DNA of 63,810 nucleotides, the filler included, from an uncultured Acidimicrobiia bacterium (GTDB lineage Bacteria > Actinomycetota > Acidimicrobiia > Spongiisociales > JAOTWH01): NCBI GenBank assembly GCA_964347285.1. It is 3 parts of 3 records of this genome, joined end to end, with 100 filler letters (N's around TTAATTAATTAA, not from the genome) between each part and the next. Parts side by side here need not be neighbours in the genome. Positions count along the whole stretch, not along the records: positions 22,065 to 43,333 come from CAYFYE010000041.1; 2 more parts are not named here. One strand, written 5' to 3'. The notes under the pieces were generated by a model that was not told where the DNA came from, ran no database searches, and was given only the letters and a program-made list of their open reading frames with translations. Every line of letters starts with the position of its first letter. Position 1 is the first letter of the stretch. The position numbers were made by a program, and so were the translations under genes. Positions 22,065 to 41,680 of the stretch are shown one piece after another.

Positions 22065-22776
22065 GCAGGCCGATCGCCATGTTCAGGCCGGACCCCTTGT
22101 ACCCGCCGATCGGGAGCAGAAAGCCTTCATCGGCACGCTTGGGATCGGTGATCGGGTTGCCGTCGAGGTCGATGACCCATCCCTCGGGCATGGCCTCCCC
22201 AGACTGGGCAAGCACCTTGATCGTCCCGTGTGACGTCACGGTGGTCGCGATATCGAGCTGGAATGGGGACTCCTCACCCGCCGGGATGGCGATCGAGATC
22301 GGGTTGGTCCCCAGCAGGCGATCGCGACCGCCCCACGGCGGCATCACGTTGGCGCTCGCCACCGCCATGTAGATGGCGATGAGATCCTGTTCCAGGGCGA
22401 GCGCGGTGTAGACGCCTGCGGCGCCCGCGTGGTTGGAGCGGACGGTGCCAACCCAGGCCATGCCGGCGCCCGTCGCCTTTTCGATGGCCGTCTCCGCGGC
22501 AAGGGTCATGACGACCTGCCCGAAGCCGTTGTCGCCGTCGACCAGTGCACTCACCGGCGTATCCCGCAGCCGTCTTATCTCGGGCCGGAGGTTGATGCCA
22601 CCCGCCTCGATGCGGGCTACGTACTGGGGAACCCGGATCAGGCCATGGCCGGTGCGCCCTCGGAGATCGGCCTCGAGGAGTCGGCGAGCGGTGATGCGGG
22701 CGTGCTCCTCGATAACGCCGAGACGCGTGAGTAGATCGACGACGAAGCCGTCGATGCGCTCCAGCGAGAGCCTCAA
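22065..22776 (-). CDS. Ldh_2 family (malate/L-lactate/sulfolactate/ureidoglycolate type) oxidoreductase, 3' truncated
   Basis: ADLRG..GHGL.R, VDGDNGFGQV, SNHAGA, GTNPISIAIP, LDIATT, GGYKGSGL. Confidence 0.9.
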
Positions 22777-23156
22777 TGCTCGAACTGCTCGACGGTCTTC
22801 CCGGTGTCGGCGTACGTTCGCGTGACGTGGGTGCTCCCGTACACCCACAGGATCCGCATCGTGGACTCGCCGTTGTTGATGAAGCGATGAAGCTCACCCG
22901 GGAAGATCTGCGTCGTGTCGTAAGGTCTTGCCGGGACCTGCTTACCGTTCAGCTCTGCCAGCCCCTCTCCTTCGATGACCGTTACCTGCTCGACGGTGTT
23001 GTGGCTATGGAGTCGGATGCTCGTCCCGGGCGGGAAGCTGGTGACGCCCATGGTGAAGTCCTGACCCTCGACGGGAGTGGGAGTCAGCGGGACGCTCTCG
23101 ATCCCTTCCCCGCGCGCAACGGGCTTCACCTCGTCGAATCTGATCAGTCCTGCCAT
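22773..23156 (-). CDS. cupin domain protein
   Basis: PPG..I.LHSHNTVEQV.VIEG, PGELHRFIN. Confidence 0.85.
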   Translation of the reverse strand: MAGLIRFDEVKPVARGEGIESVPLTPTPVEGQDFTMGVTSFPPGTSIRLHSHNTVEQVTVIEGEGLAELNGKQVPARPYDTTQIFPGELHRFINNGESTMRILWVYGSTHVTRTYADTGKTVEQFEH

Positions 23157-23175
23157 ACCGCGTCCTCCGTTGGTC

Positions 23176-23922
23176 TCATGCCATGAACCGGCCGCCGTTC
23201 ACCGACACGGTCTGTCCGGTCATGAATCCTGCTTCCGACGATGCCAGAAACAGCACCCACTCGGCAACCTCTTCCGGGCCCTGGTACCGGCCCAGGGGAA
23301 TGGTTGCCGCGGTTGCCCGCCTCTCGGCCTCGTCCCGCAATTGGCTGATTCTCTCGGTCATGACAGCAGACGGGGCCAGGGCGTTGACCGTTATCCCGGC
23401 TCCAGCCAGTTCCCATGCCATCACCCGCGTCAGAGCGTGGACCCCGGCCTTGGCGGCGGCATAAGCCGGTGCCGTTCGGTGGCTGGCAGTCTGGCCGGCC
23501 AGAGAGCCCAGGTTCACGATCCGCCCCGCCTCGGACTTGCGGAGTAGCGGCAAGGCGGCGCGGGTGGTCAAGAACACCGACGTGAGGTTGAGATCGACGA
23601 TCTGATGCCACTCGTCGAGTGTCGTGTCGTCCATGCCCCGCTGCTCCGGAAATCCGCCGGCGTTGTTGACCAGAACGTCAATGCGGCCGGATTCCTCTCT
23701 GATCTGGGACATGGCGTCCCTCACCTGCTGCTCCGAGGTGACGTCACAACGAATGAATGTCGAGTGCTCAATCTGTTGGGCCAGAGCAGCTCCTCCGTCG
23801 GAGTCAATGTCGAGGAGGTAGACGAAATCCATGGCACGACCGAAAGCGGCAGCGGTAGCCCGTCCGATGCCGAGCGCGGCGCCGGTCACGACGACGACCC
23901 GTCCGCCAGGCTCTCCACTCAC
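23176..23922 (-). CDS. SDR family oxidoreductase
   Basis: TGAALGIG, NNAG, YAAAK, TGQTVSVNGG. Confidence 0.92.
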   Translation of the reverse strand: MSGEPGGRVVVVTGAALGIGRATAAAFGRAMDFVYLLDIDSDGGAALAQQIEHSTFIRCDVTSEQQVRDAMSQIREESGRIDVLVNNAGGFPEQRGMDDTTLDEWHQIVDLNLTSVFLTTRAALPLLRKSEAGRIVNLGSLAGQTASHRTAPAYAAAKAGVHALTRVMAWELAGAGITVNALAPSAVMTERISQLRDEAERRATAATIPLGRYQGPEEVAEWVLFLASSEAGFMTGQTVSVNGGRFMA

Positions 23923-24839
23923 GTCTTCGCCAATTCGAACAGGTCTTCGGAAAGCCCCCGGTGTGCGAGCGCGATCGCGGGAGCAGATGCTTCGAGAAAC
24001 TCATTGCGCTCGTCGTCCGTCAGGTCGACGAACTCGATCCCGGCCTCCTCCATGGAAGCTCGCAGCGATGCTTCGAGGTCGGCCGCCACCGCGCGCTGCG
24101 CGTCGATCGCGGTGCGAACTGCCCGCTCGACGACCCGGCGAAGATCGCCCGAAAGGGATTCGAAGGTCGGGCGATGGGCGAAGAGACCCCGGGCGCCGTA
24201 GAGATGGCCGGTCATGGTGACATAGGGGTGAACCTGATCCACGCTGTAGGCGACCGTATTGGCTAGCGGATTCTCCTGGGCATCCACCTCGAGCCGCTCG
24301 ATGAGCCTGATGGCCGCGCTGAGCTCGACCGCAACCGGGATGCCGCCCCAGGACCGGATCAACTCCTCGTGGATCTCGTTCGGCTGCATTCGCACCGTCA
24401 TCCCTCGGCAATCGACGGGTGTCCGCACCGGGCGCAGCCGATTGGTCAGATGCCGGAAGCCGTTGTCCCAGAACCCGAGAGCTTCGAAGCCGGTCGAGGA
24501 GCGAACCGCTTGTTGCAGGGCCTTCCCCAGCGCTCCGTCGAGCGCACGGTGCGCCTCCTCGAGGGATGCGAAGAGGAACGGCGTCTCCAGTACGTTGAGC
24601 TCGGGAACACGCTCACCGAGGTAGCTCGATGAGAAGTAGCAGAGGAACATGTCGCCGGCCTCCACCAGCTCGAACAGATCGGTGTTGGGCCGTCCCTCGT
24701 CCATGATGTTCCAGGTGATGTCCACCGCAAGCTCGCCGTCGGTCTCGGACTCGACGATGCGGCGGAACGCGGCAAGGCCGTGGCCGTGGGCGCTCTTCTC
24801 AGGGCCATACCCCCCAATCCAGAGGGTTTCCCGGCTCAT
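23919..24839 (-). CDS. TRAP substrate-binding protein (DctP-like) without a signal peptide
   Basis: LETPFLF, FWDNGFRHLTN..RPVRTP.D..G..VR, VDAQENPL. Confidence 0.85.
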   Translation of the reverse strand: MSRETLWIGGYGPEKSAHGHGLAAFRRIVESETDGELAVDITWNIMDEGRPNTDLFELVEAGDMFLCYFSSSYLGERVPELNVLETPFLFASLEEAHRALDGALGKALQQAVRSSTGFEALGFWDNGFRHLTNRLRPVRTPVDCRGMTVRMQPNEIHEELIRSWGGIPVAVELSAAIRLIERLEVDAQENPLANTVAYSVDQVHPYVTMTGHLYGARGLFAHRPTFESLSGDLRRVVERAVRTAIDAQRAVAADLEASLRASMEEAGIEFVDLTDDERNEFLEASAPAIALAHRGLSEDLFELAKT

Positions 24840-25102
24840 GCGACGGCGCTCTGGGAGCGGTCGGGACGCCTGTTGTCGAGAGGTTCGATGAGCGATCGTA
24901 GGCAGGATCATTCCGTCGGGCCACCTCGTAAGGCGAGGCCGCGGGCATCGGTGCTCTCCGGGTAGGCCGCCCAGCGTTTTGGTGCCGGTAAATGCCCCGC
25001 CGATCGTCATGACACCGTCCCGACCCTGGCGAGCGTCTCGCAGGGGTCGAGGTGGCCCGGGCTCACGATCTCGCCCACGACCGCCGGGATCGTGGAACAG
25101 GG

Positions 25103-25225
25103 GGAGTGCAGTTCGTGGGCCGCTACGGCGACGAGGCGACGCTGTTCCGGCTGGCCTCCCAGCTGGAGCAGGCCCGCGCCTGGGGGGAGCGGCGCCCGGC
25201 GATGGCCGATCACTCGGGGGAGTGA
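25103..25225 (+). pseudogene. amidase C-terminal fragment
   Basis: [30 protein letters not shown]. Confidence 0.75.
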
Positions 25226-25234
25226 GCGCCGGGG

Positions 25235-25390
25235 TTCTTGCAACGCCGGAATGGCGTGGCTGCAGACATCCGAGGGGAGCGACACCGTCGCATGCCCGAG
25301 CCGCTCTGACACCACCTTGGGGTGCACACCGGCCTGGAGGGCCAGAGTGGCGTGTGTGTGGCGCAGACCGTGGAGCGACAGCTTCGGCAG
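25235..25390 (-). pseudogene. tyrosine integrase C-terminal fragment
   Basis: LHGLRHTHATLALQAGVHPKVVSERLGH...DVCSH; catalytic Tyr position reads Cys. Confidence 0.85.
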
Positions 25391-25412
25391 GCCGAGCGAC
25401 ACCGATCCACGA

Positions 25413-25812
25413 TCAGCCATCAGAGCCGGGCGGCAGCTCGTAGCCGGCCGCCGCCAGCGAGCCCGCTCCACCCCAGCCCCACACGAGCACGACATCCTCA
25501 TCGCCGGTGTTGTTGAAGCCATGCCAATGGCCCCGGGACGTATAGACGACGTCGCCTTTTGCGGCGGGCCGATCCTCGTCATCCGTGTGATCATTCCGTG
25601 TCCCTGGAGGACGATGAAGAACTCGTCGGCGTTGGGATGGCGGTGGCGGTCGTGGCGAGCACCCGGCGGCAGGACGGTCCAGCCCACCAAGAGATCGTCG
25701 GATCCGGAGGCGTGATCGATCAGGAATTGGACCTGCATATCGACCCAGCCGTCGTCGGCCCGCAGGCCGCGCTCGACCGCTACGTCGCGGAGGTTGGTGC
25801 GATACGGGTCAC
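25413..25812 (-). pseudogene. cupin domain gene with frameshift near 25590
   Basis: LPPGARHDRHRHPNADEFF then GDVVYTSRGHWHGFNNTG in a shifted frame. Confidence 0.75.
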
Positions 25813-26175
25813 TTACGACATCCCCGCAAGCATGTGATGGACGTCGAATACGGTCACGAAGTCCCGGTGATCGATGCCCCGCCCGCGGCAGGCGTTGAGC
25901 ATCTCGTTGGCGGCGGCCGCCAGCGGGACCGGCACGCCCGACCGCCGAGCGACCTCGAGTGCCAGGATCATGTCCTTTTGCTGGAGGGTCACGTCGGCCA
26001 GCGGCACGTCGGGCATGTCCAGGATGAAGGGCCCTCGATAACCCATGACGGGGGAGGCGACCACGCTCTTGAGCATGGCGTCGACGGCGATATCTCGGGG
26101 CACGCCCTCTTTCTCGGCGAGCGCCACAGCCTCACAGAAGGCGACCATCTCGACGATGAGCGCCAGGTTGCCGGT
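25813..26175 (-). pseudogene. 3-hydroxyisobutyrate-dehydrogenase-family C-terminal fragment
   Basis: NLAL...AFCEAVALAEKEGV, KDMILALE..R..GVPVPLAAAA; cut off at the tRNA fragment. Confidence 0.8.
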
Positions 26176-26818: not shown

Positions 26819-27328
26819 CTACGACGGCAGGCCGCGCAGGGCTTCGATCACGTCGTCGAGGTCGGGGAGCACGAGCGGGTCGTCGGACTGCCACCGATAA
26901 CGAATCGAGCCATCGGTGTCGAGCAGGAACACCGACCGTTTGGCGAGGCCGACGTGGCCCTTCCAGACGTCGTACTGGGCTCCGTACGACGCCGACACCG
27001 TTCCCTCCCAGTCCGACAACATTGGGAAGTCGACCCCGAGGGACTGGCCAAAGGCGACCTGGGAGAAGGTCGCCGTAACGGCCACCGCCACCGGCTCTGC
27101 GCCCAACGTACGGATCTCTTCTGTCCGTTGTCCCAACTGGGACAGCGCTTGCCCTCAGTACTCCCCGTAGTCGAACACGTAGAACACGAGGACCACCGGG
27201 CCCCGCGCCAAGAAGTCGGAGAGGACCACTGACTCCTCGAACGTCCGTCGAAGCGTGAACTCGGGCGCACCGTCGCCCACGTCGAGGACGTCGGACTTCC
27301 CGGCCTGGCTGAAATCGCGCCCGCTCAC
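26819..27328 (-). CDS. peroxiredoxin-like (AhpC/TSA) selenoprotein, Sec58 encoded by in-frame TGA
   Basis: AGGAGG RBS + GTG; VGDGAPEFTL...LSDFLARGPVVLVFYVFDYGEY-TGA-GQALSQL...FPMLSD...KRSVFLLD.DG.IRY in one frame; final stop is TAG. Confidence 0.8.
27129..27144 (-). promoter_or_regulatory. candidate bacterial SECIS hairpin
   Basis: UGUCCC-AGUU-GGGACA beginning 10 nt 3' of the UGA (27155-27157); G-containing apical loop. Confidence 0.65.
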
Positions 27329-27408
27329 GTACACCCTCCTGGACGAGTACGCGAGCGTAGTGCCGCAGTCCCGCCGGCTGCCGTCAGGCTTTCTAGCATC
27401 GGCCGGCG

Positions 27409-28779
27409 ATGAGCGCCGACCTCGCCGTCACCGGAGGCACTGTCGTGGGCTCGCGCGGAAGGCGCAGCGCTCACGTCTACGTCGACGACGGGAAGGTCGT
27501 TGACATCAGCCCCGAGGTTCGCCCGGCCCGCCGGACGTTCGACGTCACCGGGCTGTTCGTGCTCCCCGGGATGGTGGACAGCCACGTCCATCTCATGGAT
27601 CCGGGCCCGACCGATCGTGAGGACTTCCCGACCGGTACGAGGGCAGCGGCCGCCCGGGGCGTGACCACCATCGTGGAGCACACCCACGCCAACCCCGTTC
27701 GGAGCGTGGCCGACCTGACCGCCAAAGTCGAGCACCTCGCCCGCCGGTCGAACGTCGATTTCGGGCTGGCAGCTCACACCTGGCCCGACCGGATCGGCGA
27801 CCTCGCCTCACTCTGGGAGGCCGGGGTGACCTTCTTCAAGATCTTCACTTGCACGACGCATGGGGTACCCGGCCTGGATCGGGATGCGCTCCACGAAGCC
27901 CTATCCGCGATCGCTGGCTTCGGTGGAACGTGCCTGATCCATTGCGAGGACGAGGCGATGACTGCTGCGGCCGAGCGCCGCTTGCGGGACGCCGGGCGGA
28001 CCGACGGTTTCGTCATCCCGGAGTGGCGGAGCCGGGAAGCAGAGGAGACCGCGGTCGTCGTTGTGGCGGATCTAGTGGCAACGACCGGAGTTCGGGCAAC
28101 GATCGCCCACGTGAGCAGCCCCGCCGTCGCCGACATCATCGAGCGGGCCCGCGCCCGAGGCGCAGATCTCGCCGCCGAGGCCTGTCCGCAGTATTTCGCG
28201 CTGCGCGAGGACGAGGTGATCGAGTGGGAGGCGCTGCGGAAGTTCACCCCGCCGGCGCGTGCCCGCTCCGACGCCGATGAGCAGGCAATGTGGGATCTGG
28301 TCCGCCGCGGCGTCCTGACCCACTTCTCCACCGATCACGCCCCCTCCACCCGTGAGCAGAAGCTGGCTGGCGACATCTGGGAAGCACCGTTCGGCCTTCC
28401 CGGACTCGATACAACGACGCCGTTTCTCCTCAACGCCGCGTCTCACTCCCTTCTCACGCTCGAAGACGTCGTCGTGATGTACTCCGAGGCGCCCGCGCGC
28501 CGCTACGGCCTCTACCCGCGAAAGGGTCGCCTCGGGCCCGGGTCCGACGCGGACATGATCATCGTCGACGAGACCCGCCGTTGGACCGTGGCGGATGACG
28601 ACATCATCTCCAAGGCCGCCTGGTCGCCCTACGCCGGCCGGGAGTTCGCGGGCGGGGTGACCGCGACGCTGCTACGGGGCGAGGTCATCGCCGTCGACGG
28701 AATCCCCAGAGACGAGCGGTCGGGCCGCTTCCTCCCCGGTCCAGGACGTCGCCGACAACGAGAGAAAGAGGAACCATGA
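27409..28779 (+). CDS. cyclic amidohydrolase (allantoinase/dihydroorotase/dihydropyrimidinase family)
   Basis: LPGMVDSHVH, GT.AAAARGVTT, FKIF, HCED, HVSS, KFTPP.R, TDHAP, GSDAD. Confidence 0.88.
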   Translation: MSADLAVTGGTVVGSRGRRSAHVYVDDGKVVDISPEVRPARRTFDVTGLFVLPGMVDSHVHLMDPGPTDREDFPTGTRAAAARGVTTIVEHTHANPVRSVADLTAKVEHLARRSNVDFGLAAHTWPDRIGDLASLWEAGVTFFKIFTCTTHGVPGLDRDALHEALSAIAGFGGTCLIHCEDEAMTAAAERRLRDAGRTDGFVIPEWRSREAEETAVVVVADLVATTGVRATIAHVSSPAVADIIERARARGADLAAEACPQYFALREDEVIEWEALRKFTPPARARSDADEQAMWDLVRRGVLTHFSTDHAPSTREQKLAGDIWEAPFGLPGLDTTTPFLLNAASHSLLTLEDVVVMYSEAPARRYGLYPRKGRLGPGSDADMIIVDETRRWTVADDDIISKAAWSPYAGREFAGGVTATLLRGEVIAVDGIPRDERSGRFLPGPGRRRQREKEEP

Positions 28780-29174
28780 AGGTCCACAACCCATCAACCG
28801 TGGCGCCGCCCTTCGCCACCTACGTTCATGCCATCGAGATCGACGAGCCGGTCCGCCTGCTCTTTGGCGCCGGACAGGTCGGCGTGGATGAGGACGGCAA
28901 CGTCGGCGAGGGAATCGAGGAGCAGGCTCGGCTCGTGTGGCGCAACATCAGGGAGGTGCTGGCTTCGGCCGGGATGGAGATCAGCGACATCGTTCAGCTG
29001 AACATGCTTCTGATCGATCGGGACGATGCACCGGCGGCCCGAGCCGTCCGCTCGGAGGCGCTCGGCGACCACCGGCCGGCTTCCACGCTCATGTACATCT
29101 CCGGGCTCTCCCGCCCGGAGTGGCGCATCGAGATCGACTACATTGCCGCCAGGGCAACCGGCGAATCTTCGTAA
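28776..29174 (+). CDS. RidA/YjgF family protein
   Basis: AGQVG, EQARLVWRNI..VL..AG, RPASTL..ISGL..PEWRIEID. Confidence 0.88.
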   Translation: MKVHNPSTVAPPFATYVHAIEIDEPVRLLFGAGQVGVDEDGNVGEGIEEQARLVWRNIREVLASAGMEISDIVQLNMLLIDRDDAPAARAVRSEALGDHRPASTLMYISGLSRPEWRIEIDYIAARATGESS

Positions 29175-29206
29175 GGTACGGCTCCGACGCACACAGGTGG
29201 AGACGA

Positions 29207-30199
29207 ATGACCGACGCGACAAGGCTGGCTTCGGTCGGGTTGGGATGGTGGGGCAACGTGCTTGCAGACGCCGCGGTGGCGGCGGGCGCCGAGCTCGTGG
29301 CCTGCTTCGCCCGCACCCCCGAGGCCCGAGCGGAGTTCGCCGACAAGCACGGGTGCGCGGCAGCGCCGAGCTACGAGGCGATTCTCGAGGATCCTTCGAT
29401 CGACGGGGTGGTGCTCGCCACGCCGCACACTACCCACGCCGACGCCATCGTCGATGCGGCCCGCGCCGGAAAGCACGTGTTCGTGGAGAAGCCGCTCGCC
29501 CTCACGGTTGGCGACGCCCAGCGAGCGATCGTTGCCATCGAAGAGGCGGGCACGGTGCTCGTCGTCGGTCACAACCGCCGCCGCCAGCCCGCGATGCGCC
29601 GGCTCAAGGAGATGATCACCGGCGGCGACCTCGGGCTGGTCGTGGCCGTCGAGACCAACCAGTCGACGCCCAATGCCCTCGGGTTTGCACCGGGGTACTG
29701 GCGAGCAGACCGGGCAGAAAACCCGCTGGGGAGCATGGCCAACCTGGGCGTGCACATGATCGACACGATGAGCTACCTGCTGGGTCCGATCGACCGGGTC
29801 TTCGCATTCAGCAGCGTGCTCATCGAGTGGCCGCCGATCGATGACACCACGACCGTGGTCATGGAGTTCGAGTCGGGCCCGCTGGGTTATCTCGGCACCT
29901 CCTTCGTGGTTCCCCGCACGACGACCGTTATCGTGCGCGGCACGGATGGCTCGGCGACGTCGACCGAGGACGGCGCCCGCTTCTTCGTTCAGGCCAGGGC
30001 CGATGCGGCAGAAACGGAGGTGCCGATCGAGCAGCTCGACACCGTCGCCGATGAGCTCGCTGAGTTCACCCGATGCATCACGGATGGTGCGACGCCGGAG
30101 ACCGGCGGCCCCGAGGGGCTCGAGGTGGTCGCCGTCATGGAGGCGATGACCGCTGCCGCCGAATCGGGAACGGTCCAGCGCGTGGCCGACTTCCGCTGA
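29207..30199 (+). CDS. Gfo/Idh/MocA family oxidoreductase
   Basis: VGLGWWG, ATPHTTH, AGKHVFVEKP, VGHNRR, GVHMID. Confidence 0.9.
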   Translation: MTDATRLASVGLGWWGNVLADAAVAAGAELVACFARTPEARAEFADKHGCAAAPSYEAILEDPSIDGVVLATPHTTHADAIVDAARAGKHVFVEKPLALTVGDAQRAIVAIEEAGTVLVVGHNRRRQPAMRRLKEMITGGDLGLVVAVETNQSTPNALGFAPGYWRADRAENPLGSMANLGVHMIDTMSYLLGPIDRVFAFSSVLIEWPPIDDTTTVVMEFESGPLGYLGTSFVVPRTTTVIVRGTDGSATSTEDGARFFVQARADAAETEVPIEQLDTVADELAEFTRCITDGATPETGGPEGLEVVAVMEAMTAAAESGTVQRVADFR

Positions 30200-30657
30200 T
30201 GGCTCGGAAGCTCACCCTCGGTGAGGCGGACCGAATCATCGACGCCGCCCTGGCCAAGGGCAGGGAGCTCGAGCTGGGCAGGCTGGCGGTCGTCGTGCTC
30301 GATGACGGCGGGCATCCGATCGCAATGAAGCGAGAGGACGGCAGCGAGTACCTCCGGCCCCGCATCGCCACCGCCAAGGCCTGGGGCGCGCTGGGCATGG
30401 GGCTTCCCAGTAGGCGTTTGTTCGAACGCTCCCAGAAGATGCCCGTGTTCATCTCCGCCCTCTCCGACCTGGCGGACGGTGGCCTGGTCGCCCTGCCCGG
30501 CGGCGTCATCATCAGGGACGAGGACGGGTCCATTCTGGGTGCTGTGGGCGTGTCGGGAGACGTCTCGGAGCCCGACGAGGTGTGCGCCACAGCCGGTGTC
30601 GAGGCCGTCGGTCTGATGGCGGATGTCGGGGACAACCCGGAGTGGAACCGCCCCTGA
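30199..30657 (+). CDS. GlcG/HbpS family heme-binding protein
   Basis: VVVLDDGG, IATAKAW, PGGVII....G.ILGAVGVSG..SEPDE.CA. Confidence 0.9.
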   Translation: MARKLTLGEADRIIDAALAKGRELELGRLAVVVLDDGGHPIAMKREDGSEYLRPRIATAKAWGALGMGLPSRRLFERSQKMPVFISALSDLADGGLVALPGGVIIRDEDGSILGAVGVSGDVSEPDEVCATAGVEAVGLMADVGDNPEWNRP

Positions 30658-30660
30658 GGC

Positions 30661-31422
30661 CTACCCCGTCGACTCTGCTCGCTGAGACTCCATCGCCTCG
30701 AAACGCCCGAGGATCTCTGCCTGCTGGCTGGCGAACTCCGGGTCCGACGCCCTGCGGGGGAAGGGAAGATCGATGGCCGTGTCGTCGAACACGGTTCCGC
30801 CGTGGGCAAGTGTGATGATCCGGGTCGACAACTGAACCGCCTCGATCACATCGTGCGTCACGAAGAGCACCGTCTTCTTGGTCGCTTCCCATAGCGTCTG
30901 CAGCTCCTCTCGGAGCGACCGGGCCGTGATCGCGTCGAGATGGCTGAACGGCTCGTCCATCAACAAGAGATCAGGATGCACCGAGAACGCCCTGGCGATG
31001 CCGACCCGCTGCTGCATGCCGCCCGACAGCTGCCCGGGGAACATCTCCTCGGAGCCGTCGAGCCCCACCATCTCGAGGTACCGTTTGGCGTTGTCCCTGG
31101 CCTCCTCGTCGGGGAGATCGCTCACGTAGAGCATGTTCTGCAACACGGTTCGCCACGGGAGCAGTCGCGGATCTTGAAACACGTAGCCAAGCACGGCCTT
31201 TTCACCGTTCTGGGTGACGGTGACGGTGCCGCTGGTCGGGGTCTCGACGCCGGAGACGATGTTGAGCAGGGTGCTCTTGCCGCAACCGGACGGGCCGACG
31301 ACGGACACGAACACCTGCCCCGACATCTCGAAGCTGATGCCCTGAATGGCCCTGGTCGGCCCACGACGCTTGGAGTGGGATGGAAACGTCTTGGTCAGGT
31401 TCTGAATCTCCAGTGTCGCCAT
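30661..31422 (-). CDS. ABC transporter ATP-binding protein (NitT/TauT type)
   Basis: GPSGCGKST, VFQDPRLLPW, LSGGMQQR, LLMDEPFS, FVTHD. Confidence 0.95.
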   Translation of the reverse strand: MATLEIQNLTKTFPSHSKRRGPTRAIQGISFEMSGQVFVSVVGPSGCGKSTLLNIVSGVETPTSGTVTVTQNGEKAVLGYVFQDPRLLPWRTVLQNMLYVSDLPDEEARDNAKRYLEMVGLDGSEEMFPGQLSGGMQQRVGIARAFSVHPDLLLMDEPFSHLDAITARSLREELQTLWEATKKTVLFVTHDVIEAVQLSTRIITLAHGGTVFDDTAIDLPFPRRASDPEFASQQAEILGRFEAMESQRAESTG

Positions 31423-31439
31423 GCTCGCTCCTGCCAGGC

Positions 31440-32333
31440 CTACCGATGCGCCCCGGCCAGGTCATCGCCGAAGCCGGCGTGGTCGAGCTCGATCTCGATG
31501 GCGGGGGCGTCGGATCTCCGCCAGCGGAAGGCACGTTTCTGCAGCGGCGTGAGGATCAGCCCGTCGACGAGGAAAATGATCGTGACAAAGATGATCACCC
31601 ATCCGATGAAGCCGTGGTAGCGCGCTCCGTCGTACCATAGACGCGACCGCCACCCCACCCCGTTGCCGGCACCGAACCACTCGGCCAGGAGCACCGCATT
31701 CCAGCCGATGATGAAGGCGAACCGGAGCCCGGTGAAGAGGTAGCCGGCGATGGCGGGCATGAGCAGGCTGCGGAAGCGCCGGTTCTGCGGCACGTGGAAT
31801 GCGTCTGACATGTCGTGCAGTTCCGGGGAAACGGCCCGCACCCCCTGAGCGATGTTGACCGCGACGAACGGCGCCGCCGACAGCGCCACCGTGTACACCG
31901 GGGCTTCCCACCCGAGGCCGAACCACATGACGGTGAGGAAAGCCCAGATGATCGCCGGCAACGCCAGGAACACGAGCAGCACATCACTCAGGAACGCCCG
32001 CATGAAGCCGCTCGAGCCGACGGCTACTCCGACGATGACCCCGGCGACCACGCCGATCAACAGCCCGATGCTGAAGCGTATGAACGTCACCGACAGATGC
32101 TCGACCCACTCTCCGGTCACGACACCGCCGTGGTTCCCCCAGGTCAGCTCGGTCCAGATGAACTGGAGGGTCGCCACCGGACTCGGGACGCGCGCAACAA
32201 AGGTGGCGAGCAGCTGCCAGAGGATGATGAACGCGACGTATGACGTGATACGGGCTCCCCATGACGACGTCAATGCCCTGCCGACAGGATGGCGCTTGAG
32301 GCTCGGCCGATCTAGAAGGGTGGCGAAGCTCAT
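31440..32333 (-). CDS. ABC transporter permease (NitT/TauT type)
   Basis: Hydrophobic; EAA-like loop; AEWFGAGNGVG. Confidence 0.88.
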   Translation of the reverse strand: MSFATLLDRPSLKRHPVGRALTSSWGARITSYVAFIILWQLLATFVARVPSPVATLQFIWTELTWGNHGGVVTGEWVEHLSVTFIRFSIGLLIGVVAGVIVGVAVGSSGFMRAFLSDVLLVFLALPAIIWAFLTVMWFGLGWEAPVYTVALSAAPFVAVNIAQGVRAVSPELHDMSDAFHVPQNRRFRSLLMPAIAGYLFTGLRFAFIIGWNAVLLAEWFGAGNGVGWRSRLWYDGARYHGFIGWVIIFVTIIFLVDGLILTPLQKRAFRWRRSDAPAIEIELDHAGFGDDLAGAHR

Positions 32334-33139
32334 GCCAGCTGCTCCCAGGTCCGCCATCGGAACAGGCGGCGCTCGAGGGCGGCGAGCAGCCGCTCGATGC
32401 CCAGCAGCAGCACGATGAACATCAGTGTCCAGGCTATGACACCCGTGATCGAGAAGGCCTGAAAAGCGAACCGGATCTGGAACCCGACGCCGTTCGACGA
32501 TCCGAAGACCTCGGTCAGGGCCTCGACCTTCCAGGCTATGGCGAAGGCGAGGCGCACTCCGGCGAAGATGAAGGGAAGGATCGAGGGGACCATGATGTCG
32601 CGAAACGTCTGACGTTCGGACCGCCGGTAGGCCTTGCTCATCCGGAGTAAATCGCTGTCCACGCCCTGGATCCCTTCGGCCACGCCGAGGGCGATGAACG
32701 GCATCGAGATCAACCCCACCGCCAGGACCGGACCCAGGAACCCGATGCCGAAGATCACCAGGGCCATCAGGGCGTAGACGATGCCGGGGATGCTCCCGGC
32801 GCCGACCACGCCGTCGTGGAAGAAGGCCTCCCAGTACTTGCTCCTGCCCATCAGGTACCCGATTGGGACACCGATGAGCACGGCGATGGCGAACCCCATG
32901 AAGGTCTTGGTGATGCTCGCCTGGAAGTCGTCGATGAAGGCGCCGGTGCTGGCGATCTCCCAGATCTCCCGGCCCACCTTCAAGGGTCCCGGCAGCGTGA
33001 ACTCATCGAAGAGCACCCTGGAGGTGAGGGCCCAGATGGCGACGAAGACCACCCAGCCCAGCACGACACCGGAGGCCCGCCGGAGCCTTGCTCCGGCGAA
33101 CCTCCGATCCGTGCCTTCGAGTGCTACCGCTTCAGCCAA
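32330..33139 (-). CDS. ABC transporter permease (NitT/TauT type)
   Basis: LPGP, GVPIG..MG, PSILPFIFAGVR, EVFGSSNGVG. Confidence 0.88.
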   Translation of the reverse strand: MAEAVALEGTDRRFAGARLRRASGVVLGWVVFVAIWALTSRVLFDEFTLPGPLKVGREIWEIASTGAFIDDFQASITKTFMGFAIAVLIGVPIGYLMGRSKYWEAFFHDGVVGAGSIPGIVYALMALVIFGIGFLGPVLAVGLISMPFIALGVAEGIQGVDSDLLRMSKAYRRSERQTFRDIMVPSILPFIFAGVRLAFAIAWKVEALTEVFGSSNGVGFQIRFAFQAFSITGVIAWTLMFIVLLLGIERLLAALERRLFRWRTWEQLA

Positions 33140-34204
33140 TTACGAAGGCGGCACGATGTCGTATTCCGGTAGCTGGACGCCTTCGGTCAAGCCGGCTTGA
33201 TCGAGCATCGTGAACAATTCGGACTCGGAATCGATCCACTCCTGAGTGAGATAGATGTCCTTGACGAACCAGTCGTGGGCCGCCAGGTAGTCCTGCATCC
33301 AGGCGATCTCCGCATCGGTCTGCACCGCGAAGTGCTGCGGATAGCTGGCGATGATCTCGTCACGGTTGGCGGCCCATTCCTTGAGACCGCGATCCCACAA
33401 CGCCAGGAAGAACTCGACCTCCTCCGGGTGGTCGGCGTACCAGTCGTCGCGGGCCATGAAGATGTTGATCATCGGGCCCTCGTGATCGGGCGAGTCGACC
33501 AGCTCTGCATAGAGATTGGCCGAGCTCTTGCCGTCGTAGAGGACATTGACCTCTTCGTTCATCAGAATCGGGACGGCGAAGTCGGGCAGCACGATGGCAC
33601 AGTCGGTGTCACCGTTGGCTGCCTGGTTGGCCGTGTTCGTGTGGTCCACGAGCACGAGCTCGAAGTCGCCGCCATCGACCCGGAAGTCGAGGCCGTGCAT
33701 CTCGTTGGCCAGGACGCCCCAGATCGTCGTCGAGGACAACGTGTCCCATACCGCCACGGTGCCGCCTTCACAGTCGGCAAGGGATGTGTACTCCGGGTGA
33801 TCCGGAGAGGAGACTGCGATGCTCCGGTCGATGTTGTACTTGCCGAAGACGGTGCTCGGGATCCCGAACTCTTCCTCGATGATCGGCACCTCGAAGTCAC
33901 CGACCGACATGATGTCGGCGTTGCGGCCGGCATACACGCCGACCTCGTTCCAGGTCGCCGAATCGAGAATGGCGATGTTCGCCTCCGTCTCCATCTCCTC
34001 GCGGATGCCGGAGTCGATCAGATAGTCCCACACCGGGTCCGGTGCGAAGGCGAACCGGATCACCTTCGGGACGTTGGGATCAGCCGCCGCCTCACCACCG
34101 GCCGCGGCGGCGGTGGTGGTCGCCCCCTCCGAGTCTCCACACGAGGCCGCCACCATGCCGATCGCCAATAAGAGGGCGATCAGCGATACAGCCCTTTTCG
34201 TCAT
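33140..34204 (-). CDS. ABC substrate-binding lipoprotein
   Basis: Lipobox VAASC; acidic soluble domain; first gene of the ABC unit. Confidence 0.8.
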   Translation of the reverse strand: MTKRAVSLIALLLAIGMVAASCGDSEGATTTAAAAGGEAAADPNVPKVIRFAFAPDPVWDYLIDSGIREEMETEANIAILDSATWNEVGVYAGRNADIMSVGDFEVPIIEEEFGIPSTVFGKYNIDRSIAVSSPDHPEYTSLADCEGGTVAVWDTLSSTTIWGVLANEMHGLDFRVDGGDFELVLVDHTNTANQAANGDTDCAIVLPDFAVPILMNEEVNVLYDGKSSANLYAELVDSPDHEGPMINIFMARDDWYADHPEEVEFFLALWDRGLKEWAANRDEIIASYPQHFAVQTDAEIAWMQDYLAAHDWFVKDIYLTQEWIDSESELFTMLDQAGLTEGVQLPEYDIVPPS

Positions 34205-34301
34205 ATGCCCTTCCTCCTCGTCGATGCCAGCCGATGAGCTGGTTTTGCAGACTATACGAGGGATTGCCAATCGCCGCCCGAGGACCGAGGAAGATCCTGG
34301 G

Positions 34302-35198
34302 TCAGGCCGGCTCCTCGCGGACGACGCCCGCCTGCTGCTCGAGCAGCGCGCACAGCGCCGCCGCATCCTGCTCGCCGAGCCCGGCCGCGACGGCTGCCTC
34401 GTACAGCGGTCTCGAAGCGTCGAGCAAGGGCGTGGGCACACCGAGACTGCGGGCGTAGTCGCCGATGACGCCCACGTCCTTGATGAACATCTTGAGGCGC
34501 GCCGCCGCCGGTTCGTAACGATCCTCGACCATCATCGGCCCCCGGATCTCGAGGATTCGCGAGCTGCCCACACCGGCGGAGAGCACATCGAGGATCTGCT
34601 TGGGATCGAGTCCCGCCTTCATGCCCAGCACGAACGCCTCCGCGGTGGCGAGGTTGTGAACCGAGACCAGGAGGTTGGCGAGGAACTTCATGATCGAGCC
34701 CTTCCCGAAGGCGCCCAGATCGAAAGTCTGCTTCCCGATGGCCTCGAAGACCGGATCAGCCTCTGCGATCGCCGCGGCATCGCCGCTGGCGTAGATCACC
34801 ACGGCCCCGGCGGCCGCCTCCAGGCCGGTCCCGCTGACCGGCGCGTCGATGACCGCAGCGCCTTTCGGTTCGAGAACGGCCCTGGCGTGCTCCTTGGCAT
34901 CGAGGGGAAACGTGCTCATCTCGATGACGATCAGCCCGTCGTGAGCGCCGGATTCGAGTGCGTCGTCCCCGGCAAGCACCTTTTCGAGGGCTGCCACCGA
35001 CGGCAGGGCGGTGATCACCACCCCGCTGCTGGCAGCCACCTCTGCGGGAGAGTGGGCACGCACCCCCCCGGCCGCCTCGAGCTCGTCCATGCGATCTTCC
35101 TCGATGTCGTACCCGGTGACCTCGAATCCGGCCTCGAGCAGATTGGACGAGAACGCCGCCCCCATGATCCCGAGTCCCACAACGCCTATTCGCTGCAT
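34302..35198 (-). CDS. NAD(P)-dependent oxidoreductase, 3-hydroxyisobutyrate dehydrogenase family
   Basis: VGLGIMG, EMST, DAPVSG, MKFLANLL, FIKD. Confidence 0.92.
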   Translation of the reverse strand: MQRIGVVGLGIMGAAFSSNLLEAGFEVTGYDIEEDRMDELEAAGGVRAHSPAEVAASSGVVITALPSVAALEKVLAGDDALESGAHDGLIVIEMSTFPLDAKEHARAVLEPKGAAVIDAPVSGTGLEAAAGAVVIYASGDAAAIAEADPVFEAIGKQTFDLGAFGKGSIMKFLANLLVSVHNLATAEAFVLGMKAGLDPKQILDVLSAGVGSSRILEIRGPMMVEDRYEPAAARLKMFIKDVGVIGDYARSLGVPTPLLDASRPLYEAAVAAGLGEQDAAALCALLEQQAGVVREEPA

Positions 35199-35974
35199 CT
35201 GCCTTCTCCCAGGAACGATTCGACGGCTGCGATGAGCGCCTCCGGTTGCTGCAGCTGTGGACAGTGGCCGCAGTCGTCGAGCACGAGCCGCTCGGCGCCG
35301 CGGATCCTGCCGGCCAGCTCGGAGGCCATCTCCGGCGGGGTCGTTTGATCCTCGGCGCCGGCCACCACCAGCGTCGGGTTCTCGATCGAGCCCAGGTGGG
35401 GCCGAAGGTCCATGACGGCCAGGGCCCGACAGGCGGCGGCGAAAGCACCGGGATCGACGCGCAGGAGCACGTTTCGCCGTTCCTCGAAGACCTCGGGATG
35501 CCGCTCCAGGTAGCCGGGCGGGAAGACCCGGCGCACGGCGACGTCGACGACGGCATCCATGCCGCCCTCCTCGACCAGCCCGCTCATCGTGCCGAACGCC
35601 TGCGCCCGGTCCGATGAGAAGGTGGCGCCGCAGTTGGTGGCGATGAGCCGGTTGAAGCGATCGCCGTAGCGAATCGCCAGAGCCACCGAGATGGACCCAC
35701 CGAGCCCGTTGCCTAGGACGGATGCGTCGGATCCCAGCCCCAGCTCGACCATGACCTCCGCCACCAGGTCCGCAAAGTCGAAGATGTCGGGATCGTGCAG
35801 CGGCGCCGACCCGTCGAAGCCGGGCAGCGATACCCGATACACGCTGCGCTCGCCGGCAAGCTCCGGCACGATCCGGTCGAAGGCTGCAGCGTCGGTGAGA
35901 AGCGAATGGAGGAGCACCAAGGGACGGCCATCACCGGCCGCGTCGACGTTGACGCGCCCGGCGCTCAGCTCCAC
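35186..35974 (-). CDS. alpha/beta hydrolase fold protein (enol-lactonase-like); nucleophile elbow reads GNGLGG
   Basis: LVLLHSL, LPGFDGS, PTLVVAGAEDQTTP, CGHCP. Confidence 0.85.
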   Translation of the reverse strand: MELSAGRVNVDAAGDGRPLVLLHSLLTDAAAFDRIVPELAGERSVYRVSLPGFDGSAPLHDPDIFDFADLVAEVMVELGLGSDASVLGNGLGGSISVALAIRYGDRFNRLIATNCGATFSSDRAQAFGTMSGLVEEGGMDAVVDVAVRRVFPPGYLERHPEVFEERRNVLLRVDPGAFAAACRALAVMDLRPHLGSIENPTLVVAGAEDQTTPPEMASELAGRIRGAERLVLDDCGHCPQLQQPEALIAAVESFLGEGRCSE

Positions 35975-35979
35975 GGTTC

Positions 35980-37479
35980 TCAGTTGAGCCGCCCGATCTG
36001 TCCCCCGTACCAGTCCACCGGCTCGCCGTCGGTGCGGATGGTCACGGCGCGGACATGGGTGAAGTCGTGGAACGACTCCCAGCCGCCCTCACGGCCGATT
36101 CCGCTATCGCGGACTCCACCCCACGGCGAGGCGGGATCCAGGCGATGGTGGTCGTTGACCCACACGATGCCGTGCGTCAGGCGGTCGGCGACCCGATGAG
36201 CCCGGGCCACGTCCTTTGTCCAGATCGAGGAACCCAGCCCGAAGGGCGAGTCGTTGGCCTTGGCCACCGCGTCGTCTTCGTCGCTGAACGGGATGACCAC
36301 GGCGACCGGGCCGAAGATCTCTTCGCGCGCACAGCGCATGGAGTTGCTGACGCCGCGCAGCACGGTGGGCTCGACGTAGAAGCCGTCTGCAAGGCCCGGG
36401 TCCTCGGGGATGCCGCCGCCGCACACGAGCTCGGCGCCCTCATCGAGGCCGAGGGAGACGTAGTCGAGAATCCGCTGCCTGGCCTTCTCGCTGATCACCG
36501 GGCCCAGCTGCGTATCGGCCTGGGCCGGATCGCCGATTCTGATCTTGGAGGCATGGGCAGCGAGCGCCTCGACGAAATCGTCGTAGATCGACTCCTGCAC
36601 GAGGATCCGGCTCCCGCAGATGCAGGTTTGCCCTGCCGCGATGAAGGCACCGAAGGCCGCACCGCGTGCTGAAACGTCGACGCTCTGATCGTCGAATACG
36701 ATCACCGGCGTCTTGCCCCCGAGCTCGAGCGTCGCCTTGGCGAATCGTGCGGCGGCCGCGGTGGCGATCTGACGTCCCGGCTCGGTGCCGCCGGTGAAGA
36801 CCAGCTTGGCGACATCGGGATGCGCGGCGAGCCGCCCGCCGGCCACCGGCCCCAGGCCCGGCACCACGTTGAGCACGCCGTCGGGGAACCCGGCCTCTGC
36901 GGCCAGGTCACCGAGCATCAGGCACGTGTACGGGGTGAGCTCTGAGGGCTTCAGCACGACGCTGTTTCCCGTTGCCAGGGCCGGTGCGAGGCTCTTCGAG
37001 GTGATCATCAGCGGATGGTTGAACGGGCTGAGGATGCCCACGACGCCGAGCGGGAACCGCGTGGTGTACGAGTGGTACGGGCCGGGCATCGGGATGACGC
37101 TGGTGCGATCGGCCACCAGCAAGGCGGCGTTGTAGCGGTACCAGCCGGAGAGCCGGCTGACCTGCGCCCGCGTCTCGGCGATGGGACGCCCGTTGTTCTG
37201 CGTCTCGAGGGTAAAGAGGTCCTCGAGGTGGGCGTCGATGAGATCGGCAAACCTGTGGAGCACAGCGGCGCGATCGGCGATGGTCCGGTCCGACCACTCG
37301 CCGGATTCGAAGGCGGCGAGCGCAACGGCGACGGCGCGATCGATGTCGGCTTCGTTGGCCATCGCGACCCGCCCGATCGGAGAGCCCGTGGCCGGGTTGA
37401 TGATGTCAAGGGTGGCGCCGTCGGATGCGGCCGTCTCCTCGCCGCCGATCAGCAGGCCGCGCTCGATGGTGGTCGTGAT
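35980..37479 (-). CDS. aldehyde dehydrogenase
   Basis: INPATG, PFNHP, LKPSE, FTGGT, LELGGKTP, GQTCICG, EEIFGPV; homology extends 39 codons upstream of the tracked ATG at 37362. Confidence 0.92.
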   Translation of the reverse strand: MTTTIERGLLIGGEETAASDGATLDIINPATGSPIGRVAMANEADIDRAVAVALAAFESGEWSDRTIADRAAVLHRFADLIDAHLEDLFTLETQNNGRPIAETRAQVSRLSGWYRYNAALLVADRTSVIPMPGPYHSYTTRFPLGVVGILSPFNHPLMITSKSLAPALATGNSVVLKPSELTPYTCLMLGDLAAEAGFPDGVLNVVPGLGPVAGGRLAAHPDVAKLVFTGGTEPGRQIATAAAARFAKATLELGGKTPVIVFDDQSVDVSARGAAFGAFIAAGQTCICGSRILVQESIYDDFVEALAAHASKIRIGDPAQADTQLGPVISEKARQRILDYVSLGLDEGAELVCGGGIPEDPGLADGFYVEPTVLRGVSNSMRCAREEIFGPVAVVIPFSDEDDAVAKANDSPFGLGSSIWTKDVARAHRVADRLTHGIVWVNDHHRLDPASPWGGVRDSGIGREGGWESFHDFTHVRAVTIRTDGEPVDWYGGQIGRLN

Positions 37480-37526: not shown

Positions 37527-38717
37527 ATGGCCCTAGAGAGTTGGCCCAGGGTCGTCATCGCCGGTGGGTCGATCGGAGGTCTCACCGCCGGCCTGCTTCT
37601 CCGTGACCTCGGCTGCGAGGTCGACGTCTACGAACGCTCAGGATCGCCGCTCGAGGATCGCGGGGTCGGCATCGTGGTCCTCCCCGTCACCGAGCGCTAC
37701 TTCACCGACCAGGCGGCGGCGCCGCGACGCGTCAGCTTGGAGTTGAACCACTGGACGTACGTGGACCGCGAGGGAGCCATCATCGATGCCGCCCCCGTCC
37801 GGTCGCGTTTCGCAGGCTGGGGGACGATCTACGGCGCGCTGCTGGAAGCCTTCGGCGACGACCGGTACCACCTCGGGCACGAAGTCGTCGGCTTCGATGA
37901 CCACGGCGATACCGTGACGGCGCACTTCGCCAACGGAACGTCGGTCGACGGTGATCTCCTCATCTTCGCCGACGGCGTCTCCTCGACTGGCAGATCGCTG
38001 CTGCTTCCCGAGGTTCCACCCGCCTACGCCGGCTACGTGGCGTGGCGGGGAACGACCCCCGAGGCGGCCCTGTCGTCGGGAGCTCGTGGCGACCTCGCCG
38101 ACGCCATGCTCTATCAGGTGCTGGATGGCGGTCACATCCTCGTGTACGCGATCCCGGATCGAGAAGGCAGAACGCACTCCCCCCACCGAGCGATGAACTT
38201 CGTGTGGTACCGCAACTACCCGACCGGCGGACCCTTCGAAGACCTGATGCTCGGCCGCGACCGCAGGCGGCGCACCACCACGATGCCGCCAGGAGCGGTG
38301 CGCCAGGAGCACCGCGACGAGATGCGGGCGGCTGCCACCGCGGCCATCGCCCCGACCCTGCTCGAGGTCGTCCTCCGGTGCGCCGAGCCGCTGATCCAGG
38401 CCGTCTTCGACTTCAAGAGCCCCCGCATGGCATTCGGCAGGGCCTGCCTCATCGGTGATGCAGCCGCAACCCTCCGGCCCCATGTCGCCGCCGGCCAGGC
38501 CAAGGCTTGCGCCGACGCCTGGGCTCTTCGTGATGCGCTCCTCGCGAGCGAAGGAGACGTCGCGAGCGCGCTCTCCGCGTGGGAGCCGACCCAACTCGCC
38601 CTTGCCAACAAGGCCTTCACCCGCAGCCGTGAGATGGGCATCGCCAGCCAGTTCGGGGGAACCATGATTCCCGGCGATCCGTCGTGGCGGTTCGGGCTGT
38701 GGGAACCGGGGAACTGA
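37527..38717 (+). CDS. FAD-dependent monooxygenase, 2,6-dihydroxypyridine 3-hydroxylase-like
   Basis: GGSIGGLTAGLLLRDLG.EVDVYERS, G.GIVV.P, YAGYVAWRG, NFVWY.N, GDAA..LRPHVAAG.AKA. Confidence 0.8.
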   Translation: MALESWPRVVIAGGSIGGLTAGLLLRDLGCEVDVYERSGSPLEDRGVGIVVLPVTERYFTDQAAAPRRVSLELNHWTYVDREGAIIDAAPVRSRFAGWGTIYGALLEAFGDDRYHLGHEVVGFDDHGDTVTAHFANGTSVDGDLLIFADGVSSTGRSLLLPEVPPAYAGYVAWRGTTPEAALSSGARGDLADAMLYQVLDGGHILVYAIPDREGRTHSPHRAMNFVWYRNYPTGGPFEDLMLGRDRRRRTTTMPPGAVRQEHRDEMRAAATAAIAPTLLEVVLRCAEPLIQAVFDFKSPRMAFGRACLIGDAAATLRPHVAAGQAKACADAWALRDALLASEGDVASALSAWEPTQLALANKAFTRSREMGIASQFGGTMIPGDPSWRFGLWEPGN

Positions 38718-39407
38718 TCAGTCGTCGAGGATGGCGACCGCCCGGGTGGGGCCGCCGTGGGCACCGACCACCTTCAGGGGGAAGCCGACGAAGGTAAAGC
38801 GTTTGCTGACGACCTCGGTGAGCACCAGGTTCTCGTAATGGGTCTTGTGGACCCGCCGGCACATCATGTGCACGGGGTAGATCGTCGACGTGGGGTTGTC
38901 CGGAGTCGGAGAGTCGACACCGAACGTGGTGATCTCCTTATCGAGGATCCAGTCACACGCCGACTCGCCGAGCCCCGAGTGGTTCGTCAGGTACTCGTCC
39001 GCGCCGGCGTACTTGTCGTAGGTGCCGGTGTAGAAGAAGCAGTGATCGCCGGGGTCGATGGTGAGGCCCGATGCAGCCAGCGCCTCGTCGAGGTGCTCCG
39101 CCGTCACGTCGGTCTTCTCCGGCACGTGAGAGACGTCGAGGCACAGAGCGGGCCCGTAGAACAGGTGCAGATCCATCTCGTCGATCGTCGCCGCCCCCGG
39201 TGTCGGGTCCAGGTGGCTGAACGAGTCGACGTGGGTCGGTCCGTTGTCGTTCATCTGGATCCCCCAGGTCTGGATGGAGAACCCGCTCGTCCAGCGGGGC
39301 GCCGTCTCCTCGTGGGTGGCGTGCTGGAACGTGACCGTCTTGTTGTGGCCGGGATAGACCTTCATGCCCTCGTAAATCGGCTGGGACAGATCCACCAAGC
39401 GTGCCAT
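38718..39407 (-). CDS. cyclase family (kynurenine formamidase-like) metallohydrolase
   Basis: LVDLSQPI..GM.VYPG, THVDS.SH, GVDSPTPD, HYENL, FPLK..GAHGGPTRAVA. Confidence 0.88.
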   Translation of the reverse strand: MARLVDLSQPIYEGMKVYPGHNKTVTFQHATHEETAPRWTSGFSIQTWGIQMNDNGPTHVDSFSHLDPTPGAATIDEMDLHLFYGPALCLDVSHVPEKTDVTAEHLDEALAASGLTIDPGDHCFFYTGTYDKYAGADEYLTNHSGLGESACDWILDKEITTFGVDSPTPDNPTSTIYPVHMMCRRVHKTHYENLVLTEVVSKRFTFVGFPLKVVGAHGGPTRAVAILDD

Positions 39408-39443
39408 TGCAGTGCTCCCTTCCTCCTGTATTTCGTTGAGCCT

Positions 39444-40214
39444 TCAGTACATGACGATGCCCGAGTTCACGTTCAGGTCGGCGCCGGTGATCGCCCGGGC
39501 CGCATCCGAAGCGAGGAACACGGCCACATCCGCCACGTCGCGGGCCTCGGTGAGCCGGTTGAGCGCGGCCTGGGTTGCGAACTCGTTCCTGACGATCTCC
39601 ACGTCGATGCCCCGTTCCTTGGCCTGCGCCTCGCTGAGCCAATCGAACCGCGGGCCGGCGACGAAGCCCGGCGAGATGAGGTTGATGCGAACGCCGTGAG
39701 GCCCGGCCTCGAGCGCCAGCGTCCTGGTCAGGCCGAGAAGCGCCATCTTGGTCGAGGTGTAGGGGGATCGGCCGACCAGCGGGCGTTTGCCGCTGACCGA
39801 CCCGATGTTGATCACCGACCCGGAGCCGCGCGCGATCATCGACGGCAGCACGGCACGGGTCACCAGGAACACCCCGGTGATGTTGACATCGAACGTCTCC
39901 TGCCAGTCGGCGAGATCGATCTCCCACAACGGTCCCGACGGGCCGCCGATGGCGCTGTTGTTGACCAGTACGTCGACGTGGCCGAGTCGGTCGAGGACGG
40001 TCTCCGCCATGGCCTCGACGCTCGCCGCCTCCGTTACATCGGTCGGAATCACGAAGGGCTCCCCACCGGCGGCAGCCACCATCGCTGCGGTCTCCTCCAG
40101 GTTGGGTTGGTTACGGGCCGCCAGTACGACGACGTCCCCCTGTTCACCGAAGGCGGTGGCGATCTCACGGCCGATGCCCTGGCTGGCCCCGGTGACGATG
40201 ACGACGTCAGTCAT
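39444..40214 (-). CDS. SDR family oxidoreductase
   Basis: TGASQGIG, LVNNS, GRSPYTSTK, ITGADLNV. Confidence 0.92.
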   Translation of the reverse strand: MTDVVIVTGASQGIGREIATAFGEQGDVVVLAARNQPNLEETAAMVAAAGGEPFVIPTDVTEAASVEAMAETVLDRLGHVDVLVNNSAIGGPSGPLWEIDLADWQETFDVNITGVFLVTRAVLPSMIARGSGSVINIGSVSGKRPLVGRSPYTSTKMALLGLTRTLALEAGPHGVRINLISPGFVAGPRFDWLSEAQAKERGIDVEIVRNEFATQAALNRLTEARDVADVAVFLASDAARAITGADLNVNSGIVMY

Positions 40215-41502: not shown

Positions 41503-41624
41503 CCGCGTCCTCCCGTGTGGGCGCCGCGGCATGCTACTTAGGGCCGGGGTGCCGGGTCGGGGGTCAGGGTTCCTCTCGGCGGACCAGACCTCCCAGGGAT
41601 CTCGCCGATGTATCGCACCGAGGG

Positions 41625-41680
41625 ATCGCGTCCGCTCCATGTTGTTCACGCCCGGGGACCGGCTCGAGATCGGCCGGTGA
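41625..41680 (+). pseudogene. possible CitE/CoA-ester-lyase N-terminal scrap
   Basis: Short match RVRSMLFTPGDRLE. Confidence 0.3.

Follow-up and report, generated by a model that had tools for sequence, protein, structure and literature searches.

Sec-peroxiredoxins are already known, among them PrxU (PF00578, TxxU motif; NF040737), in which selenocysteine (Sec) takes the peroxidatic position of the peroxiredoxin fold. The selenolate of Sec is more acidic and more nucleophilic than Cys. The 1-Cys peroxiredoxin AhpE of Mycobacterium tuberculosis is recycled by mycothiol. The motif Pxxx(T/S)xxC of the Cys enzymes has been described as indispensable for activating the peroxide (PMC4749874). An AhpC selenoprotein of Blastococcus saxobsidens DD2 has an AhpC/TSA fold, a bSECIS element and a TAG codon that is served by a tRNA-Sec with the anticodon CUA, and UAG-directed Sec has thus been published for the Geodermatophilaceae (PMC5330540). 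A table of 119 families contains peroxiredoxin- and redoxin-type entries with the motifs TxxU, UxxC, UxxU, UxxS, UGC and CxxU (PMC13188914). In Paenarthrobacter, dhph, kdhL and the gene for a PF04199 cyclase of nicotine degradation are located in one operon; superoxide is released when the product is oxidized to nicotine blue (PMC6214936).

The window analyzed here, a stretch of 63,810 nucleotides from an uncultured Acidimicrobiia bacterium, joins three contigs, one of which, C41 (window 22065-43333), contains a gene for a peroxiredoxin-fold protein with an in-frame TGA (Table 1). The original prediction of a frame of 169 codons, led by a ribosome-binding site and with a single in-frame TGA, a final TAG and no Cys, agrees with the translation of 27328..26819, and the plus-strand reading of the same segment matches no family. 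AhpC/TSA features had been noted on either side of the TGA, and the PF00578 domain does span it (residues 17-144, 80.2 bits, cut-off 26). The statement that only the half after the TGA appears as an open reading frame is right for most gene callers, which miss the upstream half because its 59 amino acids are too short, but this half is also an open reading frame (27155..27334). Public annotation retains the C-terminal half only, so that a conserved selenoprotein subfamily has become invisible in the protein databases; all 120 listed of the 287 matches to the family are C-terminal fragments of 93-121 amino acids. The TGA is also present in an assembled contig of the public run X1, with two synonymous differences nearby and none at the TGA, but X1 is possibly the source sample and its contig is therefore not independent evidence. 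ATG stands in place of the GTG start codon in three of the five closest relatives displayed. A consensus scan for promoters and terminators gave no match, and thus no full sigma-70 promoter. In three family loci (L016, L022 and L030), a TACCT-type hexamer is located a few bases 5' of the likely start codon, which suggests leaderless transcripts. Elsewhere in the window, contig C40 contains a tandem peptide-coding repeat of about 20 codons with an assembly gap of 100 N in a gene for a small membrane protein (20300-20733).

Table 1. Features of the selenoprotein gene and the surrounding catabolic island on contig C41, in window coordinates.
Feature	Position	Strand	Details
Peroxiredoxin-fold (BCP/PrxQ-AhpE-like) selenoprotein gene	26819..27328	-	169 aa, GTG start, TAG end
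Possible -10 hexamer TACGCT (inferred)	27354..27359	-	Kept upstream in 5/5 closest relatives
Ribosome-binding site AGGAGG	27335..27340	-	6 nt before GTG
Altered active-site loop, Val51 for Pro and Gly55 for Thr/Ser	27164..27178	-	V in 107/107, G in 106/107 loci
In-frame TGA aligned to the peroxidatic Cys, predicted Sec58	27155..27157	-	Codon 58
SECIS-like hairpin, 6-bp stem, AGUU loop	27129..27144	-	Starts 10 nt after TGA
Family-specific W-K-x-H segment, then conserved peroxiredoxin Arg131	26936..26965	-	W 104/104, K 102/104, H 104/104, R 104/104
Downstream island: truncated HIBADH-like gene, cupin fragment, TRAP DctP, SDR, cupin, Ldh_2	22065..26148	-	
Divergent operon: cyclic amidohydrolase, RidA, Gfo/Idh/MocA oxidoreductase, GlcG/HbpS-like protein	27409..30657	+	
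Island: NitT/THI5-type ABC transporter, HIBADH-like dehydrogenase, alpha/beta hydrolase, aldehyde dehydrogenase	30661..37362	-	
FAD monooxygenase	37527..38717	+	Closest solved structure 2,6-dihydroxypyridine hydroxylase, 2vou, E=1.9e-71
Island: PF04199 cyclase, SDR, HpsN-like HisD paralog, small no-Pfam protein, 2-hydroxyacid dehydrogenase	38718..43130	-	

The family loci were collected from GTDB (12 of 13 loci were close homologs), from the genomes of relatives (13 of 60), from the family of Blastococcus (2 of 121 genomes), from a scan across the phylum (3 of 400 genomes) and from metagenomes, where 80 of 103 relatives were recovered and 79 of these cover the Sec column (23 were not returned and one ended short of the column). 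After three near-duplicates had been dropped, the set comprised 104 loci, all of which have a stop codon in this column (84 TGA, 20 TAG and no Cys), so that the homologs contain TGA or TAG here and never Trp, Arg or Gly. The three hits from the phylum scan also have TGA. No Cys ortholog was present among the 79 scorable metagenomic loci, although the Cys form was the first pattern of the scan, and a profile search of 1.84 billion proteins gave no Cys version of the family, its matches being fragments or distant full-length peroxiredoxins. Distant peroxiredoxins were also all that was found on plasmids, with no copies of the family. Two sets of distant paralogs contain Cys at the Sec column in 14/14 and 14/14 scored loci, respectively. 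In a quick tree based on an unfinished search and 146 columns, the TAG copies form one group with a support of 97; the family and Cys proteins with the motif DFGxxC appear as sisters with a support of 61, a grouping that we do not claim.

An alignment to PrxQ (2cx3) places the TGA in the column of the peroxidatic Cys, as had been proposed; Val51 replaces the Pro, Gly55 replaces the Thr/Ser and the conserved Arg is matched by Arg131. The loss of Pro and Thr and the retention of the downstream Arg, described beforehand for this protein, hold for the whole family, in which FYVFD(F/Y)GxxU stands in place of PxxxTxxC; its chemistry may differ, as had also been suggested. The family thus lacks the Pxxx(T/S)xxC/U motif of the six classical peroxiredoxin classes, and has both the peroxiredoxin fold and the active-site Arg, the latter in all 104 loci. 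The predicted model has a pLDDT of 93.6 and TM-scores of 0.92 to Bcp4 (3hjp) and 0.89 to AhpE. None of the 104 loci has a resolving Cys at +5, and the residue at +3 after Sec is Glu in 99 of them, which sets the family apart from the UxxC, UxxU, UxxS, UGC and 2-Cys subfamilies. Within the span examined, there is just one further Cys, at +54, which is present in 38/104 loci and absent here. In an alignment of the nearest representatives (150 rows), the first altered site is Pro in 100 and Val in 17, and the second is Thr/Ser in 105 and Gly in 16, with Gly also found in Cys relatives. The two changes each occur elsewhere, and it is their joint fixation with Sec that is particular to the GxxU clade. 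A TATFS segment is likewise invariant in the family and, together with the W-K-x-H segment, suggests a specialized pocket. The scores were below the NCBIfam cut-offs for PrxU (50 against 270 bits), Prx-SUH (17 against 298), SelL-related (31 against 120) and deiodinase-related proteins (18 against 250); a deiodinase-like identity was discarded, as the match was weak (E 0.0017).

A single catabolic island takes up most of contig C41. Related islands further contain a Mo-hydroxylase, an amidohydrolase_2, M24 hydrolases and a GntR regulator, and the source genome has orthologs of the enzymes of these islands on contigs C34, C64 and C137. The combination of Mo-hydroxylase, 2,6-dihydroxypyridine hydroxylase (DHPH)-like monooxygenase and PF04199 cyclase recalls the trihydroxypyridine route of nicotine degradation, and by its gene content the island therefore likely degrades a pyridine-type N-heterocycle. 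A sulfonate (DHPS) pathway, to which the HpsN-like and Ldh_2 genes could point, is less likely, since the HisD-like gene is present in only 3/13 carriers and ring-opening hydrolases dominate. A cyclase on an Arthrobacter plasmid was considered as the nicotine PKC and rejected, as the match was located in an unrelated cluster. The HpsN-like gene (window 40207-41520) was the sole member of the HisD family detected in the genome and is closer to the sulfopropanediol dehydrogenase HpsN than to HisD; a canonical hisD may be unassembled or absent. The small protein without a Pfam hit (window 41810-42187) is 62-69% identical across several loci. Downstream of the selenoprotein gene (window 25360-26790), two fragments of integrases are accompanied by a 28-nt match to a contig end, possibly a tRNA-type att site. 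Together they interrupt a run of peroxiredoxin, HIBADH-like and cupin genes that is intact in locus L021, and the nearby HIBADH-like gene has lost its N-terminal part.

The divergent arrangement with the amidohydrolase/RidA operon had been taken as a hint of a link to catabolism. The link is real, but the amidohydrolase alone is too narrow a partner, and the tie is to a wider, shuffled island. In the 58 loci that span 3 kb or more, the amidohydrolase is a neighbor in 16 and the cyclase in 19, and the divergent layout recurs in only six other loci. Orthologs of island genes (at least 40% identity) are present in the fetched flanks of 72/103 family loci, as compared to 0/28 paralog loci. In the 60 relatives, one of whose non-carriers (G022) represents unpublished data, the island is represented in 11/13 carriers as compared to 4/47 non-carriers, the cyclase ortholog is present in 9/13 and 1/47, and the DHPH-like monooxygenase in 10/13 and 4/47, both mostly on the same contig as the gene; P-values for these co-occurrences are overstated because the genomes are kin. 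SelA, which is present in 13/13 carriers and 41/47 others, does not account for the pattern, and all six further carriers of island markers that were checked also have SelA. Taken together, we consider it probable that the function of the protein is tied to the island. In one locus (L038:1504-2200), the frame continues into a RidA-like sequence, with 243 amino acids after the TGA, which represents either a fusion or a frameshift.

The reading that we favor, with a probability of about one half, is that of a one-Sec peroxide reductase produced by SelB-dependent read-through and accessory to a likely pyridine-type pathway. SelB would read through the UGA at the adjacent hairpin to give a peroxiredoxin-fold protein with one Sec. 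The selenolate of Sec58 would attack H2O2 or an organic hydroperoxide with the assistance of Arg131, and would depend less on the Thr and Pro that assist the Cys enzymes, both of which could thereby be dispensable. As no Cys is conserved, the selenenic acid is proposed to be resolved by an outside thiol. Mycothiol is unsupported as the reductant, since neither the MshC nor the MshD model matched above its cut-off in the source genome, and no thioredoxin-type gene was seen among the neighbors scanned. Peroxide might arise from uncoupled turnover of the flavin monooxygenase and the Mo-hydroxylase, and further from auto-oxidizing polyhydroxypyridine intermediates. Peroxidase chemistry as such is somewhat better than an even bet; it is weakened by the loss of both the Pro and the Thr of the motif and by the specialized pocket that the W-K-x-H and TATFS segments suggest. 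The presence in the source genome of a Cys AhpC/TSA gene (contig C112) and of two other TGA-containing AhpC/TSA genes (C8:33388-33762, with a UxxC motif, and C18:3370-3702) also counts against it.

The same loss of Pro and Thr would be accounted for if the protein were not a peroxidase but a Sec-dependent enzyme of the pathway itself, with the selenolate as a nucleophile or reductant acting on a pathway intermediate, for example in the reduction of a quinone-like oxidized hydroxypyridine, in a cis-trans isomerization or in a reductive cleavage, and with a substrate pocket built from the invariant His and Trp. The invariance of these residues and of TATFS fits such a role, as does the lack of a Cys version in both the 104 loci and the protein search, the frequent co-directional placement of the gene inside the operon and its strong co-occurrence with the island genes. 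However, the peroxiredoxin Arg and fold are intact, and some related cyclase clusters lack the gene: G351 (98% complete) contains a cluster of cyclase, DHPH-like and Mo-hydroxylase genes, and G479 the cyclase and Mo-hydroxylase, with no family member in either genome (98-99% complete). Conversely, the carrier G056 has neither the cyclase nor the DHPH-like gene, and five loci adjoin UbiA outside the island (L039, L041, L042, L161 and L162). We therefore regard a pathway enzyme as rather unlikely, and give equally limited credence to its wider form, in which a Sec-only clade of the peroxiredoxin fold gave up peroxide chemistry and became the dedicated selenoenzyme of an undescribed pathway for pyridine-type N-heterocycles in the Actinomycetota. 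The G351 cluster and the five copies beside UbiA point instead to an accessory rather than an obligatory role.

These five copies could also belong to a selenoperoxiredoxin of general purpose that is no more than a passenger of the island, and 31/103 loci have no island gene in the fetched flank, many of the flanks being short. Such a passenger is improbable, as the linkage has outlasted extensive shuffling of the gene order across distant lineages of the Actinomycetota, the presence of the gene tracks that of the island within genera g16 and g20, and paralogs of a housekeeping type exist separately.

Both the peroxide reductase and these alternatives presuppose that the TGA is read as Sec. 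The prediction required Sec machinery in the source genome (90% complete), and selA, selB, selD and tRNA-Sec were all found there. The anticodon of this tRNA-Sec is UCA, and the SelD protein is itself encoded with an in-frame TGA. The codon matches the anticodon in 10/10 genomes where the tRNA was found: UCA in 8/8 genomes with TGA, and CUA in 2/2 TAG-bearing genomes tested, where the tRNAs are called 'Pyl' by ARAGORN and yet score above the cut-off of the tRNA-Sec model. In a metagenomic contig (L152:1845-6629), selB, selA and a selD-like gene with an AIRS domain directly follow the selenoprotein gene and island genes, and in G479 selA and the cyclase share a contig, at a distance of about 25 kb. 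The hairpin was recovered as described, with a stem of 6 bp and an AGUU loop 10 nt downstream of the TGA. Its loop (AGTT) is invariant in 75/75 distinct family sequences, and the stem positions pair in 431/450 cells, as compared to 36-56% for slid partners, with changes on both sides indicating co-variation. Codons +5 to +7 after Sec are fixed across the family even at synonymous sites, and the 5' arm includes codon +5, the site of the resolving Cys in PrxQ-type relatives, which is Ser here. By chance, a comparable stem with a G-loop at +8 to +12 follows 91 of 56,295 genomic TGA trinucleotides (0.16%). Although the databases show the C-terminal half only, and no tRNA-Sec was detected in the carrier G009 (E<=1e-9) and no SelA in G574 (E<=1e-40), a true stop in a pseudogene or split gene, or a stop read as another residue, is hardly credible, as the frame is conserved on either side of the stop, the stop never falls outside the catalytic column, TAG is accompanied by a CUA tRNA-Sec, the hairpin co-varies and G574 does have tRNA-Sec and SelD. 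Read-through with Sec is thus nearly certain.

The family offers a natural experiment on whether peroxiredoxins that use selenium can do without the 'essential' Pro and Thr, and a clean case in which TGA was exchanged for TAG as the codon of a selenoprotein and the tRNA changed along with it. The gene also marks an uncharacterized catabolic island with cultured carriers in Blastococcus and, by database names, Geodermatophilus. If the protein were a pathway enzyme, it would give bacterial selenium a catabolic role beyond the known anaerobic reductases, and if it were a dedicated selenoenzyme, the degradation of the compound would depend on selenium.

A GxxU peroxiredoxin is absent from the portion of the 119-family table covered (PMC13188914), with which PMC9312934 agrees, and the Sec-only, island-linked subfamily is thus not in the covered parts of the 2026 inventory. 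The literature search returned no paper on a link between a Sec-peroxiredoxin and the island, and none mentioning the Acidimicrobiia. PrxU resembles the family in the placement of Sec, but has PxxxTxxU rather than GxxU and a conserved second Cys that the family lacks, and its model cut-off is not reached. The archaeal BCP/PrxQ proteins (Sulfolobus Bcp4, 3hjp; Aeropyrum PrxQ, 2cx3) are closest both in sequence (E 4.6e-20) and in predicted fold (30% identity), while the family differs in having Sec for Cys and in lacking the Pro, the Thr/Ser and the resolving Cys at +5. AhpE also has one catalytic residue and is actinobacterial, but its sequence match is only E 2e-12 and its motif differs. The TAG-encoded AhpC of B. 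saxobsidens DD2, compared by description rather than by sequence, may or may not belong to the GxxU family; the genus sample of Blastococcus contains a second TAG-containing AhpC/TSA family with the motif RGDW-U-PYC (L175 and L176), 22% identical to the GxxU family, and three further TAG hits (L172-L174). Finally, the island has a DHPH-like monooxygenase and a PF04199 cyclase in common with the trihydroxypyridine pathway of nicotine and 2-hydroxypyridine degradation (kdhL-dhph-pkc; hpoH), and its relatives also share the Mo-hydroxylase. It resembles that pathway with the cyclase being likened to pkc through its membership in PF04199 and not by comparison with PKC itself, and differs from it in adding an HpsN-like dehydrogenase, a cyclic amidohydrolase, M24 hydrolases and an amidohydrolase_2.
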